Origin: Candidatus Iainarchaeum sp.
GTDB lineage: Archaea; Iainarchaeota; Iainarchaeia; JAGGVJ01
Direction: 5' to 3'
NCBI GenBank assembly: GCA_021158055.1
Contig: JAGGVJ010000020.1
Coordinates: 1 to 20,165, forward strand
DNA: 20,165 bases
Shown here: one piece after another, positions 8,048-15,667 of the stretch
How positions within the stretch are numbered: position 1 is the first letter of the stretch
Layout of the letters: every line of letters begins with the position of its first letter
Notes under the pieces: model-generated
Seen by the model: the letters and a program-made list of their open reading frames with translations, nothing else
Databases searched by the model: none
What the model was told of the DNA's origin: nothing
Made by a program: the position numbers and the translations under genes

Positions 8048-8410
8048 ATGGCAAACAAATTTGCAGTCAAAACAAGTTTTCATCCCTACCGCATGGTCAT
8101 TAAAAGAAAAGAAAAAGTGGAAATGCGCGTGGAAATAACAAACACAAGCGAAGAAGAGAAAATGACTTCGCTCACAGTGGAAACCCCAAAAGGCCTCAGC
8201 CTCAACGAAACCTTAAACATTACCTCGCTTGAAAAAAGACTGGGAATCCTGAAACCAAAACAAACCGCGCGCATTTTTTTCAACATCCACCCGCGTTTCG
8301 ACACACCGCCCGGGCCGAAAGAAATCAGTTTAAGCCTCATAGAACACCACAAAAGCTACGACTTTGTATCTGACCAGTTTGACAGCAAAATAACCCTTAA
8401 AACAGAATAA
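8048..8410 (+). CDS. Hypothetical protein, single Ig-like beta-sandwich (CARDB/NEW3-like pattern), no signal peptide
   Basis: Strong AGGTGA RBS. VEMRVEITN...LTVETPKGL...LGILKPKQT...FNIHP...PPG pattern. Confidence 0.6.
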   Translation: MANKFAVKTSFHPYRMVIKRKEKVEMRVEITNTSEEEKMTSLTVETPKGLSLNETLNITSLEKRLGILKPKQTARIFFNIHPRFDTPPGPKEISLSLIEHHKSYDFVSDQFDSKITLKTE

Positions 8411-8488
8411 CTGCTGAAATCATATTTCTTTCAAACAGAATAACTGCTGAAATCATATTTCTTTCAAACAGAATGACTGCTGAAATCA
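8400..8488 (+). repeat. 33-bp tandem repeat, 2.7 copies, starting across the stop codon of the 8048-8410 gene
   Basis: AAACAGAATAACTGCTGAAATCATATTTCTTTC at 8400-8432 and 8433-8465 (identical), plus a partial copy at 8466-8488 with one substitution. Confidence 0.95.
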
Positions 8489-9235: not shown

Positions 9236-9769
9236 ATGAAAGAAATACGAATACACGGCCGCGGAGGCCAGGGCGCGGTAACCGCAGCCGAACTTCTTGC
9301 GGTTGCGGCATTTCTTGAAGGAAAATGGTGCCAGGCATTCCCCCACTTCGGAGTGGAACGAAGGGGAGCACCAGTAGCCGCATTCACAAGAATAGACAGC
9401 GAGCAAATCAGGTTGCACCAGCAGGTCTACAACCCCGACTACGTCATTGTCCTGGACGCAAGCCTCACCAAATCAGTCAATGTTGCAGAAGGGCTCAAGG
9501 AAAACGGGCTGATCATCATCAACTCTTCAAAAACCCCGAAACAACTCGGGCTTGAAAACAATACCGTCACAGTCGACGCAACAAAAATCGCGGTAAAAGA
9601 AATAGGCAAGCCCATAACAAACACCACCATGCTCGGGGCGTTTGCAGGCGCAACAAAAGAAATTGACGTGGAAAGCCTTGTTTCCGCAATAAAAGAACGG
9701 TTCCCTGAAAAACTCGCCAAGGCAAACGAAGCAGCGATAAGAGCCGCGTTCAGCGAGGTGAGCAAATGA
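9236..9769 (+). CDS. porC: Pyruvate/2-oxoacid:ferredoxin oxidoreductase gamma subunit (porC/porG)
   Basis: [31 protein letters not shown] motifs. Confidence 0.96.
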
Positions 9770-10029
9770 AAGTAAGCATTGCGGGAATAATCAGCGAACC
9801 CGGAAACTCAACCGAAAACAAGACCGGGGACTGGAGGACATTCAGACCCGTCGTGGACCTGAAAAAATGCAAAAAATGCGGAATATGCGCAAAATTCTGC
9901 CCTGACTCGGCCATAACCGTCTCAAAAGAAAAAGGCGCGGAAATTGACTACGATTACTGCAAAGGGTGCATGATATGCATGCACGAATGCCCGTTCAACG
10001 CAATAACACAGGAAGACGAGGAAAAATAA
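9766..10029 (+). CDS. porD: Pyruvate/2-oxoacid:ferredoxin oxidoreductase delta subunit (2x[4Fe-4S])
   Basis: [10 protein letters not shown]; [12 protein letters not shown] and [12 protein letters not shown]; ATGA overlap with porC and a GAGGTGA RBS. Confidence 0.96.
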
Positions 10030-10114
10030 CCCCTTGCGCGCAAAAAGCAGGCAGATAATACAGGGCAGAAAAGAACAGAAAAAAATTTCAGATTTAGAAA
10101 GGAGAAGTGGTTTT

Positions 10115-11284
10115 TTGAAAAAAATAATCAACGGTTCAAAAGCAGTCGCAGAAGCCGTTAAATTGTGCAGGCCAAAAGTGCTGCCAATGTACCCTGTCAC
10201 CCCCTCAACCCACATACCCGAAGCCCTCACCCAAATGAAGGCAGACGGAGAGCTTGAAGGGACACCCATAACCGTTGAAAGCGAATTCTCGGCTATTTCA
10301 GCATGCATCGGCGCAAGCGCAACCGGGGTCCGGACATTTACCGCTACGTCATCCCAGGGGCTTGCCCTCATGCACGAGGTTTTGCACACAACATCAGGGA
10401 TGCGCCTCCCGGTAGTGATCGCTGTTGCCAACAGGGCATTAAGCGCACCCATAAACATCTGGAACGACTGGCAGGACTCGATCTCGCAACGGGACACCGG
10501 GTGGATCCAGCTTTACTGCGAAAGCAACCAGGAAGCACTTGACACAATGATCCAGGCATACAAAATCGCAGAAGACAAACGCGTGCTTCTCCCGGTCATG
10601 GTCTGCATGGACGGGTTTTACATCACTCACGCAACAGAACCGGTTGACATACCTGAACAGGAAACAGTTGACTCTTTCCTGCCCGAGTACAAACCGGAAC
10701 ACGCCTACCTTGACACAGAAAAACCGATTACTCAGGGCCCGTTCAGCGGGCCTGACTCTTTCATCCAGATAAAATTCGAGCAAAGCACTGCAACAGACCG
10801 CTCGCTTGAAGTGATAAAAGAAGTCGCAAAAGAATTCGGGGAAAAATTCGGCAGGCACTACCCTGTTGTTGAAACCTACAAGACAAAAGACGCAGACAAA
10901 GTGATCCTGACAATGGGAACGCTTGCCGGAACCGCAAAAGACGCGGTTGACGAAATGCGGGAAGAAGGAAAAAAAGTCGGGCTTGTGAAACTCAAGGCAT
11001 TCAGGCCGCTTGCAAAAAAAGAACTGATTGAAGCTTTGTCAAACGCAAGCGAAGTAAGCGTCATTGAAAAAAACATTTCTTTGGGGACAAACTCTGGAGC
11101 GGTCTTCACAGAGCTCAGGAGCCTGCTTTACGGGACAGACCCCATCCCGAAAACCGTCAACTACATTGTCGGAATCGGGGGCAGGGATGTTCCGAAAATC
11201 GACCTGAAAGCCGCTGTAAAAAACACTTCGGGCTGCGGTGACGGGGAAATTTTCTGGGTCGGGGTTGAAGAGGTGGTCAGATGA
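10115..11284 (+). CDS. porA: Pyruvate/2-oxoacid:ferredoxin oxidoreductase alpha subunit
   Basis: YPVTPST, VESEFSA, TATSSQGL, ANRALSAPINI, DGFYITH motifs. TTG 10115 (after AGGAGAAGTGG) fits the family N-terminus better than the track's 10034. Confidence 0.95.
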   Translation: MKKIINGSKAVAEAVKLCRPKVLPMYPVTPSTHIPEALTQMKADGELEGTPITVESEFSAISACIGASATGVRTFTATSSQGLALMHEVLHTTSGMRLPVVIAVANRALSAPINIWNDWQDSISQRDTGWIQLYCESNQEALDTMIQAYKIAEDKRVLLPVMVCMDGFYITHATEPVDIPEQETVDSFLPEYKPEHAYLDTEKPITQGPFSGPDSFIQIKFEQSTATDRSLEVIKEVAKEFGEKFGRHYPVVETYKTKDADKVILTMGTLAGTAKDAVDEMREEGKKVGLVKLKAFRPLAKKELIEALSNASEVSVIEKNISLGTNSGAVFTELRSLLYGTDPIPKTVNYIVGIGGRDVPKIDLKAAVKNTSGCGDGEIFWVGVEEVVR

Positions 11285-12171
11285 AGGAATTTTACGCGCC
11301 GGGACACAGGACTTGCGCGGGATGCGGGCCGGCTGTCGCAGTCAGGCACATTTTGGACGCTTTCGGCAAAAACACGATAATAACCAATTCAACAGGGTGC
11401 ATTGAAGTCACGGGCTCGCCTTACCCGCAGACATCCTGGAGACTGCCCTACCTTCACGCAAACTTCGAGAACGCTCCAAGCATTGCCTGCGGCGTGGTTG
11501 AAGCCCTCAGGCAGCAGGGAAAAGAAGACGTCAAAGTATTGTCTCTGGGTGGAGACGGAGGAACCGTGGACATAGGCTTTGGTGCATTGAGCGGTGCGTT
11601 TGAAAGGCGGCACAACTTCACTTACATCTGCTACGACAACGAATCCTATGCAAACACAGGAGTTCAATGCTCGGGCTCAACTCCTTTTGCGGCGTGGAGC
11701 AGCACTTCCCCTGTCGGAAAAGTCAAGCAGGGAAAAGACCGCTGGAAAAAAAACACGGCGTTCATCATGGCCATGCACGGCGCAGACTACGTCGCCACCG
11801 CTTCCATTGCAGACCCTGACGACCTGAAAAAAAAGATCAAAAAAGGCCTTGAATACGACGGCTCGAAATACATTCACGTGCTCACCCCCTGCCCGATCGG
11901 CTGGAAATTTGACTCGCAAAAGACCATTGAATACGCGCGACTGGCAGTAAACAGCGGCATGTGGGCCTTGTTTGAAATAGACCAGGGTGAATTCCGAATA
12001 ACTGAAAAGCCAAAAGATTTGGGTAACATAGGGGAATACATAAAAGGACAGGGCAGGTTCAAACACGTCACTGCATCGCAGTTAAAGGAAATGCAGTCTC
12101 ACGTGAAAAAATCGTGGAAAGAGCTTGAAAAACTTGAAAAATCAGGACTCAACCTCAAGACAATGCTTTGA
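11281..12171 (+). CDS. porB: Pyruvate/2-oxoacid:ferredoxin oxidoreductase beta subunit (TPP-binding)
   Basis: GHRTCAGCG, TGC, GGDGG...YDNESYANTG, PCPIGW motifs; ATGA overlap with porA and a GAGGTGG RBS. Confidence 0.96.
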   Translation: MKEFYAPGHRTCAGCGPAVAVRHILDAFGKNTIITNSTGCIEVTGSPYPQTSWRLPYLHANFENAPSIACGVVEALRQQGKEDVKVLSLGGDGGTVDIGFGALSGAFERRHNFTYICYDNESYANTGVQCSGSTPFAAWSSTSPVGKVKQGKDRWKKNTAFIMAMHGADYVATASIADPDDLKKKIKKGLEYDGSKYIHVLTPCPIGWKFDSQKTIEYARLAVNSGMWALFEIDQGEFRITEKPKDLGNIGEYIKGQGRFKHVTASQLKEMQSHVKKSWKELEKLEKSGLNLKTML

Positions 12172-12243: not shown

Positions 12244-12324
12244 TTACGAAAATCCGTAAGGATTTATGCCATTTTCTTACGGAAAAAGGTAAAGTTTATA
12301 TATTCACATCAACACTGAAGAGTT
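12244..12324 (+). promoter_or_regulatory. Promoter of ATPase gene 1: two imperfect palindromic boxes (33-bp period), TATA, TCACATCAAC, leaderless ATG
   Basis: TTACGAAAATCCGTAA at 12244 and TTACGGAAAAAGGTAA at 12277; TTTATATA at 12295; TCACATCAAC at 12304-12313; ATG at 12325. Confidence 0.7.
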
Positions 12325-13614
12325 ATGATTGAAAAAAACATTAAAAAAACCATACTTAAATATAAGGAATTAATCCCTGAAAACATTTTTCAGAGGGATT
12401 TAAAATTGCATGAAGTCAAATTTGACAAAGCTAATGTAATTGTCGGACCGAGGAGATCAGGAAAAACTTTTTTTTTATATAATCTGGCAAAAAAACAAAA
12501 AAATCCTGTATTGATTAATTTTGAGGATAATCTACTGGGTGAATTGAAAAGCTCTGATCTTAATAAAATATTGGATTGCTCTAAAGAACTATTTGAAAAA
12601 GAATCGTTATGTTTTTTTTTGGATGAAATACAAAATGTAAACGGTTGGGAAAAATTTGTCGTATCTTTGTTAAATGAACATTATCCTGTCTACATAACTG
12701 GTTCAAATTCAAAATTATTAAGCAGGGAAATAGCCACTTCATTAAGGGGAAAAGCATTGCCGTACCTGATGCTGCCATTATCTTTTAAGGAACATTTACG
12801 ATTCAAGGGCATTGTGCTCCAAAAAAATTATGAATATACTGATCAGGCATTTGTACTCAAACAACAGTTTAAAGACTATTTTAAATATGGCAGTTTTCCT
12901 GAGGTTTTGTTGTCTGATTCTTTATATCTAAAAAATAAGCTGTTGAATACTTATTTTGATTCAATTGTATACAAAGACCTGGTAGACCGGCTTAATCTAA
13001 AAAATATACGTCTGGTGGAAATAACCATAAAATATCTGCTTAATATTTATGGCAATATGTTTTCCATCTCTGTTTTTGAGAAATACCTAAAATCAAATAA
13101 GATCCCATATAGCCTGGAAGACATATACAATATCCTTAAAGCTTTACAGGATGTTTTCATGGTAAACTATGTCAAGGAATATTCAAAATCCTTCAAAAAA
13201 AGTGAAATATCCCGTTCTAAAGTTTATCTGTTTGATACAGGATACATTCATTTCTTATCCGGCGAACATGAGGATTACGGGCGAATCTTAGAAAATATTG
13301 TATTCATAGAATTATTCAGAAGACAAGACAATATTGAAAATAAAAATATTTTTTATTATAAATCAAAAAACAATAAAGAATGCGATTTTGTAATAACCAA
13401 TAGAGACAAGGTCTATGAAGCAATACAAGTCACATATGACTTTAATGAACTAAACCGTGAAAGAGAAATCAATGGCCTCTTAAGTGCAGTCCGTTTCTTC
13501 AATTTAAAAAAGGGATTAATCTTAACTTATGATCAGGACGATGAATTTCAGGCAAACGGTGTAGCGATAAAAGTGATGCCTGTTTGGAAATGGTCAATAA
13601 AATATACTTGTTAG
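12325..13614 (+). CDS. COG1373-type ATP-binding protein (AAA_14 + DUF4143; C-terminal restriction-endonuclease-like fold)
   Basis: Walker A GPRRSGKT, Walker B FFLDEIQN, TGSNS, GSFPE, KVYLFDTG, LENIVFIEL, ECDFVI...AIQV. Much more AT-rich than por (17/60 GC at 12481-12540 vs 38/60 at 11281-11340). Confidence 0.92.
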   Translation: MIEKNIKKTILKYKELIPENIFQRDLKLHEVKFDKANVIVGPRRSGKTFFLYNLAKKQKNPVLINFEDNLLGELKSSDLNKILDCSKELFEKESLCFFLDEIQNVNGWEKFVVSLLNEHYPVYITGSNSKLLSREIATSLRGKALPYLMLPLSFKEHLRFKGIVLQKNYEYTDQAFVLKQQFKDYFKYGSFPEVLLSDSLYLKNKLLNTYFDSIVYKDLVDRLNLKNIRLVEITIKYLLNIYGNMFSISVFEKYLKSNKIPYSLEDIYNILKALQDVFMVNYVKEYSKSFKKSEISRSKVYLFDTGYIHFLSGEHEDYGRILENIVFIELFRRQDNIENKNIFYYKSKNNKECDFVITNRDKVYEAIQVTYDFNELNREREINGLLSAVRFFNLKKGLILTYDQDDEFQANGVAIKVMPVWKWSIKYTC

Positions 13615-13735
13615 ATCTTTATCATAAAGACCTTCAATAGTCCTTGTTTTTGCATTTTTTTAATACGGTTGTATGTTTTGCGCCATACTCCACATCACTT
13701 CGTTCCTTGCCACGCTGCGCTTTCCTTTTATTCAC

Positions 13736-13798
13736 CTGGAACGACTGGCAGGACTCGATTTCGCAACGGGGGGAATCAATATAAAAACAATGCTTTGA
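13736..13798 (+). pseudogene. Fused relic of an internal porA fragment and a porB 3' end
   Basis: 13736-13770 matches 10459-10493 at 34/35 nt. 13772-13798 matches 12145-12171 at 22/27 nt (GINIKTML* vs GLNLKTML*). Confidence 0.85.
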
Positions 13799-13960
13799 CT
13801 CAACCCTAAAACACCGCTTACCAAAGTGAAAAAGCAAACGAACCGGGTAAAAATCCTGCTGAAGAAATGGAATTTGATGACTTTATTGACGGGATGAAAA
13901 AATGACAGGCGTAATTGCAGAAAACCAAGGCAAACATGCCGCCTAAATGCATATATGAAT

Positions 13961-14041
13961 TTATCGTTTATAATCGACAGAAATATCAAAACTTATCGTT
14001 TATAATCGACAGAAACATCAAAACTTATCGTTTATAATCGA
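13961..14041. repeat. 32-bp tandem repeat, 2.5 copies, with a near-palindromic core; homologous to the promoter repeat of ATPase gene 2
   Basis: TTATCGTTTATAATCGACAGAAAYATCAAAAC at 13961 and 13993, partial at 14025. Confidence 0.93.
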
Positions 14042-14122
14042 TGAACTGGGAAAATTTATCTATCATATCAGAAGGGGTTTTCAATACCTTTTCGTTGACG
14101 GCGCAGCCTTTCTCATCAAATT

Positions 14123-14202
14123 GCCTGTCAGCTTCCCCTGACGGGTGGGCCTTGAAACCCATTGCTTCGTGGTTTCGTATGGGTGCTGACACACACCCGT
14201 AC
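14123..14202 (+). other. Three adjacent stem-loops (candidate structured RNA or terminator cluster)
   Basis: Stems 14123-14131/14138-14146, 14154-14159/14171-14176 and 14177-14185/14194-14202. The non-Watson-Crick pairs within these stems are G-U on the plus strand. Confidence 0.45.
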
Positions 14203-14217
14203 AGCTTATGTGGGTGA

Positions 14218-15489
14218 TTATTCAAGCGCCCATAACCAAATGGGTTTCAATTCAATTGTCTTGCCATTGATTCTGATTATGTCTTCCTGATCCCCTGTGA
14301 GTATGAGTCCCGAGTCAAGCCCGTAAGCATCCATTGCATTCAGGAGCCCTTGAAACTCCCGTTTTTCATTTTTATGTTCTAATTCTTTTGTCACCTGTAT
14401 CGCAGAAATTATCGTGTTCTTGTCTTTTATCACAAAATCACATTCATTTTTTTCTAAATGATAGTATGTTTCTTTTCCGCGTCTGCAAAGTTCTATAAAA
14501 ACCATATTTTCAAGAAGCCTGCCTGAATTTTTTGAAAAACTGAAACCCACCGCCGTTGCAAGACCGGTATCTATGCAATATATCTTTTTTGAGCCCAACA
14601 TCTGCTTCTTTAATGAATATGAATATCTGCTCAACCCAAAAAACATGAAACTATTCTCAAAATAATCAAGATAATTTTTAATACTGCTTATGCTTTTTAT
14701 TCCGCTTATGTCTTTTAATGTATTATATGAATGAATCTTGCTTATATTGGATGCCAGAAAATTGCTGATTTTTTTCATTTCATTGACTTTTGTTATGGAA
14801 TGTCTTGCAATTATGTCCCTGTAAAATATGTCATTGTAATAATCTTTAAGCAACTCTTTATTTTTTTCTTTCAGGACTTGCGGGAATCCCCCCAAGGCGA
14901 TATACTCATTGAACCTGCGTTTAATTTTTGTTTTTTTTATTGTTGTAAGTTTTGAGATTTCAAATGTTTCATTGTTTAGTTTAAGATACTCCTTAAAGCT
15001 GAATGGGAACAATTCAAGAACCACATTTCTTCCCGTAAGTGATGTCGCAATTTCAGAACTGAGCAGGGTTGCATTAGATCCGGTAACAAATATCTTTATT
15101 CCTTTTTCATACATCCTGTTCAGGAATTTTTCCCAGCCAAAAGCATTTTGTATCTCATCAAAGAAAAAGACAATCTTATTTTGTTCGGGGTTGAATTCCT
15201 CAAGGAATATTGAAAAGATGTTATTGAAATCATCTGCGCTTAAATCTATGAATCGTTCATCATCAAAATTAAGGTATAATATATTATTTTTATCTGTTTT
15301 TTTAAGGATTTCATCTTTTATGATATACATTAATGATGATTTTCCGCACCGCCTTATTCCCGTGATGACAACAATCTGTTGCGTGTTTATGTATTTCTTA
15401 AGGCCTATATCTCTCTGCATCAATTCTTTTTTCTCAAAAAAAGATTCTCTTTGATCAAGCATTATTTCTTTTAGCCTGCTTTTTAACAT
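14218..15489 (-). CDS. COG1373-type ATP-binding protein (AAA_14 + DUF4143), second paralogue
   Basis: GIRRCGKS, FFFDEIQN, TGSNA, GGFP, KKIYCIDTG, LENMVFIEL, ECDFVI...AIQV. ATG 15489 is preferred because the track's ATG 15513 lies inside the TATA box, whereas 15489 is 29 nt downstream of it. Confidence 0.92.
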   Translation of the reverse strand: MLKSRLKEIMLDQRESFFEKKELMQRDIGLKKYINTQQIVVITGIRRCGKSSLMYIIKDEILKKTDKNNILYLNFDDERFIDLSADDFNNIFSIFLEEFNPEQNKIVFFFDEIQNAFGWEKFLNRMYEKGIKIFVTGSNATLLSSEIATSLTGRNVVLELFPFSFKEYLKLNNETFEISKLTTIKKTKIKRRFNEYIALGGFPQVLKEKNKELLKDYYNDIFYRDIIARHSITKVNEMKKISNFLASNISKIHSYNTLKDISGIKSISSIKNYLDYFENSFMFFGLSRYSYSLKKQMLGSKKIYCIDTGLATAVGFSFSKNSGRLLENMVFIELCRRGKETYYHLEKNECDFVIKDKNTIISAIQVTKELEHKNEKREFQGLLNAMDAYGLDSGLILTGDQEDIIRINGKTIELKPIWLWALE

Positions 15490-15571
15490 AATTATATCTG
15501 GTTGATGTGACATATAAACCTTTCGTTTGAAAAGAACGTTTTATATCAAAACCTTTCGTTTGAAAAGAACG
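15490..15571 (-). promoter_or_regulatory. Promoter of ATPase gene 2: perfect 23-bp direct repeat (33-bp period), TATA, TCACATCAAC
   Basis: AAACCTTTCGTTTGAAAAGAACG (plus strand) at 15516-15538 and 15549-15571, with core CGTT-N7-AACG. Minus-strand TTTATATG starts at 15518; TCACATCAAC at 15510-15501. Confidence 0.75.
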
Positions 15572-15667
15572 AAAACCTGATTTTTTTTCTCCGGAACATC
15601 AATATCTGAACCGCATCAATATCCGGACAGGTCTCAAGCCACACCATGCCCTCACGCACCGTAGAAA

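Follow-up and report, generated by a model that had tools for sequence, protein, structure and literature searches.

Why are two paralogous archaeal genes, located on the same contig and encoding proteins with 35% identity (BLASTP), each preceded by a pair of near-palindromic boxes that are set 33 bp apart and end next to the TATA box, and why is the sequence of these boxes different in the two promoters? The question comes from a 20,165-nt stretch of "Candidatus Iainarchaeum sp." DNA (GenBank assembly GCA_021158055.1, contig JAGGVJ010000020.1, positions 1 to 20,165; hereafter, the window), which represents contig C8 of a 95%-complete, 1.15-Mb archaeal genome. The genes in question, referred to here as gene 1 (plus strand) and gene 2 (minus strand), encode ATPases of the COG1373 family (Table 1). 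We favor the interpretation, to which we assign a probability of about 0.6, that each protein acts as a repressor of its own gene by binding to the operators in front of it. A sequence-only reading of this DNA had viewed the two genes as a self-regulating, possibly mobile cassette system; the analysis presented here partly supports that overall interpretation.

In front of gene 1, the elements follow each other in the order TTACGAAAATCCGTAA, TTACGGAAAAAGGTAA, AG, TTTATATA, T, TCACATCAAC, 11 nt, and the ATG codon at position 12325. The corresponding order for gene 2, read on the minus strand, is two copies of CGTTCTTTTCAAACG, then AAAGG, TTTATATG, TCACATCAAC, 11 nt, and ATG; the boxes at 15524 and 15557 are contained in an exact 23-nt repeat found at positions 15516 and 15549, 33 bp apart. 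The in-frame upstream ATG codon that the open reading frame (ORF) finder offers for gene 2 (position 15513) falls inside the TATA box, and the start of this gene was placed at 15489 because its homologues are 423 amino acids (aa) long. The promoter-operator layout claimed for both genes in the sequence-only reading is therefore confirmed in the sequence, and it recurs in most of the family, in both archaea and bacteria.

The same reading had drawn attention to an identical element following the TATA box. The shared 10-mer, TCACATCAAC, is real in both promoters and proved to be a local feature. It has 5 copies in the genome, and only those of gene 1 and gene 2 adjoin a TATA box; it is not kept in the six gene 1 orthologues with readable upstream regions (L102-L107), and 6 of its 10 positions are kept in an orthologue with 83% identity to gene 2. 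A role as a genome-wide initiator motif was considered and rejected, as the 5 copies compare with approximately 2 expected (a hand estimate for a 10-mer in 2.3 Mb of two strands) and only two of them are at promoters. Local exchange between the gene 1 and gene 2 promoters is a possible origin of this element.

The two-box layout was evaluated across the family in genes from class-level relatives and metagenome contigs, each taken together with the 125 nt that precede it; their 3' flanks and dinucleotide shuffles served as controls. Among 104 non-redundant upstream regions, a direct match of 9 of 10 positions was found in 40 regions at an offset of 33; the counts for offsets 32, 34, and 23 were 11, 4, and 8, respectively, compared with approximately 1 each for other offsets, for the 3' flanks, and for the shuffled sequences. 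A repeat at 31 to 35 bp was detected in 87 of 169 non-redundant upstream regions, compared with 11 of 154 3' flanks. The two-box score, which combines the palindromy of two sites with their mutual identity, reached the threshold of 26 in 97 of the same 169 regions and in 3 of the 154 flanks. Taken across the family, these offset and two-box statistics exclude chance as the source of the box layout. In a replication set composed of named genome records, the threshold was reached by 17 of 25 archaeal genes and 24 of 39 bacterial genes vs 1 of 62 flanks, and 33 was the dominant offset in both domains. The phased upstream repeats that the sequence-only reading expected in other family members are thus present, with offset 33 standing out against flanks and shuffles. 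Its "three-turn phasing" holds approximately, at 32 to 33 bp, and does not extend to the minority of genes with a 23-bp period.

The genome of "Candidatus Iainarchaeum sp." is itself rich in such genes. According to tblastn, there are about twelve family paralogues in its 1.15 Mb, 11 of which are full length and were examined. A TATA-like motif starts 29 to 34 nt before the start codon in every one of the 11, and therefore all of them look leaderless. Eight of these paralogues have their own distinct palindrome centered at approximately -41/-42, as exemplified by ATGTTAC-N8-GTAACAT, TTGCGTTATAACGCAA, CTATTATAATAG, AGGTTGCTA-N6-TAGCAACCT, GTCTTCT-GA-AGAAGAC, and TATTTGGT-N7-ACCAAATA. A second copy of the palindrome lies 33 to 34 bp upstream in 6 of the 8 and 33 bp downstream, over the start site, in 1 (on contig C1). 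In a genome-wide search, each box was private to its own promoter and found nowhere else in the 95%-complete genome, with the sole exception of a pair of boxes of the C34 type located upstream of the family gene on contig C7; this bears out the earlier claim that the boxes are paralogue specific. The idea of a regulon for each box was rejected for this genome, the boxes being unique. As a control, all genomic TATA motifs that precede a leaderless ORF with a minimum length of 80 aa were collected; a perfect palindrome with arms of at least 6 nt abuts the TATA motif at 17 of these 137 sites, and promoters of family genes account for 6 of those 17. The exceptional pair on C7 (approximately 1220 to 1290) forms an orphan promoter, in which the C34 boxes (GTCTT..AAGAC, twice) are accompanied by the TATA-like sequence TTTAAATA; it is located approximately 120 nt upstream of the C7 gene's own promoter, which has no clear palindrome.

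Boxes are conserved along with the genes that they precede. Orthologues of gene 1 from other small archaeal genomes, with 68, 61, 55, 54, 53, and 50% identity, were inspected by eye, and in all six the motif TTAC(G/C)-N6-(C/G)GTAA is present in two copies at a distance of 33 bp, the second of which adjoins the TATA box; the spacers between these copies are unrelated from one orthologue to another. Similar inspection showed that the 83% orthologue of gene 2 has kept the 33-bp units and the proximal half-site TCTTTTCAAACGAAAGGTTTATAT and that orthologues of the C35 paralogue have kept TTTGGT-N7-ACCAAA twice. A half-site is common to 96% of gene pairs with 60 to 80% protein identity, 66% of those with 50 to 60%, and at most 22% of those below 50%. 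Such a pattern bears on the suggestion that a host factor other than the family protein binds the boxes or that they represent functionless leftovers of a tandem duplication of a box-plus-TATA unit, a suggestion that draws on the degenerate TATA-like stretch found after the box in the distal 33-bp unit of both genes. We consider this highly improbable: the boxes and their spacing are kept across orthologues while the spacers drift, the boxes differ among paralogues of the same genome, so that one host factor cannot serve all of them, and the same frame is seen in archaea and bacteria despite their different core promoters.

What kind of protein could read these boxes? The products of genes 1 and 2 match the Pfam domains AAA_14 (107 and 130 bits, respectively; cut-off, 27) and DUF4143 (76 and 82 bits; cut-off, 28.1), as well as the PADLOC model PDLC04787 (E values of 1e-95 for residues 21 to 425 of gene 1 and 1e-119 for residues 22 to 423 of gene 2). 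In an alignment of 70 sequences that includes both genes, the Walker A residues G44, G49, and K50 (GxxxxGK) and Walker B residues D111-E112 are invariant, and so are E327, E349, D351, and Q365 in the C-terminal part, where the expected (D/E)xK position reads Q-V-T/K. An AlphaFold2 (AF2) model of gene 2 predicted from a single sequence was unusable, with a mean predicted local distance difference test (pLDDT) score of 38, and was replaced by a model based on the 70-sequence alignment, with a pLDDT of 91 and a predicted template modelling (pTM) score of 0.90. The latter consists of an AAA+ core (residues 36 to 164), a helical lid (165 to 232), a winged helix (233 to 306, with helices at 235 to 247, 255 to 262, and 267 to 279 and a wing at 283 to 305), and a C-terminal α/β domain (307 to 423) with the α-β-β-β-α-β layout that resembles PD-(D/E)xK nucleases. 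This model agrees with the domain composition given in the sequence-only reading (AAA+ ATPase, helical or winged-helix region, and restriction-endonuclease-like C terminus), and its nearest solved folds include Orc1/Cdc6, which that reading had named as related.

The best fold matches are the archaeal ATPases SSO1545 (Protein Data Bank [PDB] entry 2fna; E = 4e-8) and PAB2304 (2qen; E = 1.5e-7), both Walker-type members of the ATPase_2 family, along with Orc1/Cdc6 on origin DNA and STAND NTPases. However, the match of gene 2 to ATPase_2 is weak and falls below the Pfam cut-off, and we know of no function for either SSO1545 or PAB2304. The Orc1/Cdc6-DNA complex (2qby) matches with an E value of 1e-7 and a template modelling (TM) score of 0.35; it shares with the model the arrangement of an AAA+ core followed by a winged helix, and DNA binding by the proteins studied here is a prediction. 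A phmmer search found no sequence relative in the PDB, no NCBIfam family was matched, and neither gene matched Cdc6, Orc, or related Pfam families at E values up to 0.01.

The DNA-reading part was sought in genes with clear two-site operators by a sliding-window comparison of protein distance with the distance between half-site consensuses. An initial set of 49 genes gave a peak of correlation at residues 252 to 271, with r = 0.49 vs 0.32 for the whole protein and 0.05 to 0.13 for the nuclease domain. A larger set was analyzed in nine variants, and the helix-turn-helix (HTH) window at residues 249 to 283 ranked first of approximately 130 windows in six of them (r = 0.44 to 0.63); the three variants confined to moderately related pairs were all among these six, and in them HTH windows took the top four or five places with r up to 0.63. 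The nuclease domain showed the weakest correlation with box distance. At the start of the recognition helix, GSMNT goes with the half-site CTCATT, GSVNT with TTCATT, and SATTI with TTTGGT. There is good but not decisive support, drawn from sequence comparison, for the winged helix as the putative reader of the boxes. The boxes are private, fixed relative to the promoter, conserved with the gene, and changing with the HTH, and the cassette, a single ORF of 423 to 429 aa, encodes nothing else; for these reasons, we favor the view that each protein binds its own operators.

The placement of the boxes relative to the core promoter is what argues for repression. In promoters classified as archaeal, the center of the proximal site falls between -40 and -44 in 33 of 46 cases, with a second cluster at -10 to -19. 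By eye, the TATA box of archaeal members is located either in the gap between the two sites (flanking type) or directly after the proximal site (upstream type, which includes genes 1 and 2). In bacterial members, also judged by eye, the first site is a palindrome of 19 to 21 bp with the pattern NNNNCATTGACAATGNNNN, the -35 hexamer TTGACA lies at the dyad of this site, the -10 element occupies the 12-bp gap between the sites, and the second site covers the edge of the -10 element and the start point. A TTGAC(A) sequence was found within 5 nt of the box dyad in 16 of 94 genes, 15 of which had bacterial-type promoters. Finally, inspection of Bacteroidetes records revealed sites 23 bp apart, the proximal one of which contains a TTTG preceding a TAnnTTTG element. 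The two-site frame is common to three kinds of core promoter. Repression is favored because the boxes overlap the B recognition element (BRE)/TATA region, the -35 element, and the start site, and the bacterial placement is textbook repressor geometry. The occlusion of BRE/TATA proposed in the sequence-only reading thus agrees with the positions of the boxes, over BRE/TATA in archaea and over the -35 element and start site in bacteria, and the agreement is one of position. A further set of 171 family relatives, 29 to 40% identical to gene 2, comes from contigs classed as viral (L255-L334); many of them display, by eye, a single palindrome just upstream of the -35 element and a matching half-site at the extended -10 element, rather than the 33-bp pair.

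In archaea, transcription can also be activated from sites immediately upstream of the TATA box. As both boxes of genes 1 and 2 are upstream, the regulation of these two genes may be positive, which weighs against repression in their case. The position of these boxes would suit a scheme in which the protein binds its own boxes but not mainly to repress. The paired sites would serve either to dock or assemble the AAA+ nuclease on self DNA in an inactive state or, as an activator site, to recruit TFB/TBP; regulation would then be positive or secondary. A fold like those of Orc1/Cdc6 and of STAND proteins, which assemble on a ligand, is in keeping with such a scheme, and the fixed 33-bp frame suggests a defined higher-order complex. 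Nevertheless, we regard it as unlikely, given that the boxes of bacterial members coincide with the -35 hexamer and the -10/start region, the classical repressor layout, and that the second box of a subset of archaeal members lies over the start site.

Several other observations weigh against autorepression through paired private operators. The layout is not universal: approximately 40% of the genes in the main sets are below the threshold, and the distant members on viral contigs reach it in 5 of 37 cases (0 of 37 flanks). In the genome under study, two of the 11 paralogues (C7 and C15+) have no box, and the palindrome of a third (C18) is located downstream of the TATA box, from -29 to +2, outside the common layout. 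The gene 1 pair is weak when taken alone, having a two-box score of 23 and a proximal box with perfect arms of only 4 nt. Start codons and promoter classes, archaeal or bacterial, were set by simple rules. As for the co-variation of boxes with the HTH region that the sequence-only reading proposed to test, the HTH window came first in six of the nine variants but not in the other three, in which a very conserved AAA+ stretch (residues 134 to 160) was first and the HTH window was 2nd, 4th, and 8th; the variants that used all genes ranked this AAA+ stretch first. All covariation variants are confounded by shared ancestry, and the pairings of residues with bases follow clades.

The boxes could also be seen as the ends or recombination sites of a mobile single-gene cassette, recognized by the nuclease domain, with their position in the promoter being incidental. 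The cassettes are compact, extending from the distal box to the stop codon; the stop codon of gene 1 lies inside the remnant of a ParE-like gene; both genes occupy an AT-rich island; another genome has tandem arrays with homogenized 3' ends; and gene-less orphan arrays are found at 13951 to 14048 and upstream of the C7 gene. We hold this explanation to be very unlikely: no box copy is present 3' of any cassette or in other parts of the genome, the position of the boxes is fixed relative to TATA or the -35 element and not to the gene ends, and box identity follows the HTH but follows the nuclease domain least. Transposon-like ends were rejected as a candidate for the same lack of any box copy 3' of a cassette.

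The orphan array of the window consists of the near-palindromic box ATCGTTTATAATCGA; its unit is 74% similar to the operator unit of gene 2, no family gene is attached to it, and it looks like the operators of a lost cassette. The tandem arrays belong to a genome (G017; L004, L010, and L013) that contains at least 6 copies of the last 190 to 240 nt of a family gene, 94 to 100% identical, in genes that otherwise barely align at the DNA level; its contigs break within this common 3' segment, a pattern suggestive of tandem arrays whose 3' ends undergo gene conversion. Among the relatives of gene 2, a few close archaeal ones are 62 to 87% identical, and the next best ones, at 50 to 55%, bear bacterial names, including Bacteroidales, Chlorobi, and Magnetomorum; this list of homologues points to a probable transfer between domains. 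The term "mobile" in the sequence-only reading finds indirect support in the AT-rich island, the patchwork of debris described below, the copy number that varies among relatives, and the bacterial homologues at 50 to 55%.

Under the autorepression that we favor, each gene would be a self-contained cassette in which a single ORF is preceded by a core promoter and two operators. The protein, probably as a dimer, would use the beginning of the recognition helix in its winged helix to read a private palindrome of approximately 21 bp, at two sites placed 33 bp apart (range, 32 to 34 bp; 23 bp in a minority of genes). Archaeal promoters would have the proximal site centered approximately 41 to 42 nt before the leaderless start, over the BRE and abutting TATA, and the second site either a step farther upstream or a step downstream, where it would cover the start site. 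In bacterial promoters, the -35 hexamer would lie at the dyad of one site, and the other site would cover the -10 element and the start site. Occupancy of the sites would block TFB/TBP or sigma-RNA polymerase, and each paralogue would repress only itself. We infer the binding itself, the formation of dimers or oligomers, any ATP dependence, and the sign of regulation.

Genes 1 and 2 are convergent and lie on the island, in which G+C is approximately 31% vs approximately 46% in its flanks and which is located between the last pyruvate:ferredoxin oxidoreductase gene and the gene for a 1436-aa surface protein. The neighboring genes are archaeal housekeeping genes, identified by their Pfam domains as those for pyruvate:ferredoxin oxidoreductase, archaeal D-aminoacyl-tRNA deacylase, and a DHH/RecJ-like protein. 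The genomes of the listed relatives from the same class are approximately 0.5 to 1.3 Mb in size. Between the two genes, the segment from 13596 to 13905 is a mosaic of debris left by recombination: the final 12 codons of a ParE/RelE-type toxin gene, which overlap the stop codon of gene 1 (86% identical to positions 11443 to 11520 of contig C15); a 38-nt copy of a part of the oxidoreductase alpha-subunit gene (13733 to 13770; 95% identical to 10456 to 10493); a 30-nt stretch similar to the 3' end of the beta-subunit gene (13772 to 13801); and a C-terminal remnant of a MazE-like antitoxin (13864 to 13904). An intact toxin-antitoxin pair, recognized by Pfam, is found downstream of another paralogue, on contig C15. 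A search of 201 class-level genomes for an empty site or for relatives of the intergenic region (13615 to 14217) returned only fragments from the same genome and one 35-nt match at chance level.

Two other repeats of the window deserve mention. A 33-bp tandem repeat (2.7 copies, 98% matching) is found at 8400 to 8488, between two ORFs without Pfam families; it was rejected as a part of the operator system, as it is not palindromic and adjoins no family gene. The sequence CATCAATATC occurs twice, 17 bp apart, at 15595 to 15632, with TCCGGA framing both ends, just beyond the distal box of gene 2 and within the 3' region of the large surface protein gene. Rfam (E values up to 1) and ARAGORN searches of the window found nothing relevant, with one chance-level microRNA match elsewhere and no tRNA.

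Table 1. Features of the window discussed in the text
Feature	Position	Strand	Basis or remark
Pyruvate:ferredoxin oxidoreductase, four subunits	9236-12171		Pfam
Gene 1 distal box TTACGAAAATCCGTAA, TTACG-N6-CGTAA palindrome	12244..12259	+	Unique in genome; type kept in orthologues L102-L107
Gene 1 proximal box TTACGGAAAAAGGTAA	12277..12292	+	33 bp start to start from distal box; 2 nt to TATA box
Gene 1 TATA box TTTATATA, TTTATAT from 12295	12295..12302	+	30 nt before ATG
TCACATCAAC, gene 1 copy, after TATA box	12304..12313	+	Same place as in gene 2
Gene 1: AAA_14 + DUF4143, 429 aa, PDC-S01 type, leaderless	12325-13614	+	Pfam; PADLOC E 1e-95
Gene 1 stretch aligning with gene 2 HTH, residues ~245-277 (approximate)	13057..13155	+	BLASTP onto gene 2 model
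Orphan operator-like array: box ATCGTTTATAATCGA x3, 32-bp spacing	13951..14048	.	Box nowhere else in genome
Gene 2: AAA_14 + DUF4143, 423 aa, PDC-S01 type, leaderless	14218-15489	-	Pfam; PADLOC E 1e-119; homologues; AF2 model
Gene 2 helix 2-turn-helix 3 of predicted winged helix, residues 252-280, likely DNA-reading part	14650..14736	-	Model; covariation
TCACATCAAC, gene 2 copy	15501..15510	-	Sequence
Gene 2 TATA box TTTATATG	15511..15518	-	29 nt before ATG at 15489
Gene 2 proximal box CGTTCTTTTCAAACG	15524..15538	-	Within exact 23-nt repeat
Gene 2 distal box, full palindrome TTTCGTT-N7-AACGAAA	15554..15574	-	Core 15557-15571; 33 bp from proximal box

Several known systems resemble these cassettes. 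DnaA boxes are found in the dnaA promoter, and DnaA autoregulates. The presence of repeated dyad boxes beside the protein's own gene is a trait shared with both DnaA and Orc1/Cdc6. In contrast to these proteins, there is no sign of an origin here, the family genes add a C-terminal nuclease-like domain, and the family is represented by many paralogues per genome, with private boxes placed on core promoter elements. The controller (C) proteins of restriction-modification systems and the autoregulators of type II toxin-antitoxin systems have paired palindromic operators over their own promoters and form specificity groups that do not cross-talk. The likeness to them would be a functional one, in that a mobile, potentially harmful gene would be held in check by its own product. 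However, C proteins and antitoxins are small, separate HTH or ribbon-helix-helix (RHH) proteins, whereas here the putative DNA reader is a domain of the effector, joined to an AAA+ ATPase; the COG1373 cassettes have no small stand-alone HTH or RHH partner gene and are not members of the C protein or antitoxin families.

Both genes match, over the full length and in both Pfam domains, PDC-S01, the PADLOC phage defense candidate that corresponds to COG1373 and whose defense activity has candidate status. PDC-S01 is reported to be an ATPase fused to a PD-(D/E)xK domain and the fourth most common defense candidate, and to be enriched in Archaea (PMC12988326); a single representative was tested in Escherichia coli B, and the 4 protective candidates out of 8 did not include it (10.1101/2024.09.26.614923). 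In the open-access literature searched, publications on the family are limited to surveys and domain catalogues (PMC3424549, PMC12988326, 10.64898/2026.10.19.760177, 10.1101/2024.01.29.577857, and 10.1101/2024.09.26.614923), with no mention of promoters, operators, DNA specificity, or autoregulation for this family. Within that literature, no description of private paired operators in the COG1373 family was found.

A broader and more tentative view, which we consider rather doubtful, is that COG1373/PDC-S01 represents a very large natural collection of single-gene repressor-operator cassettes that are orthogonal to one another, with a fixed 33-bp two-site frame that is indifferent to the type of promoter and an operator pair that parks the AAA+ nuclease on self DNA. 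If so, the private specificity for approximately 21 bp would be set by a small number of residues where the recognition helix of the winged helix begins, and the gap or dyad would hold a TATA box, a sigma-70 -35 or -10 element, or the Bacteroidetes -33 element, so that cassettes would cross between Archaea and Bacteria by swapping the core promoter alone. Occupancy would be lost through a trigger that drives ATP-dependent reassembly, whereby the gene would be derepressed and the nuclease freed.

PDC-S01 is very common, yet it has no known mechanism, and the operator frame offers the first concrete, testable molecular property of this family, a predicted sequence-specific DNA binding by the winged helix. 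It tells which DNA is suited for binding, structural, and reporter work. The outcomes of heterologous tests may be affected as well, since a cassette cloned with its native upstream region carries its own operators. The natural series of protein-site pairs may make the recognition code readable, and a single regulatory design spread over three core promoter types bears on the movement of genes between Archaea and Bacteria.

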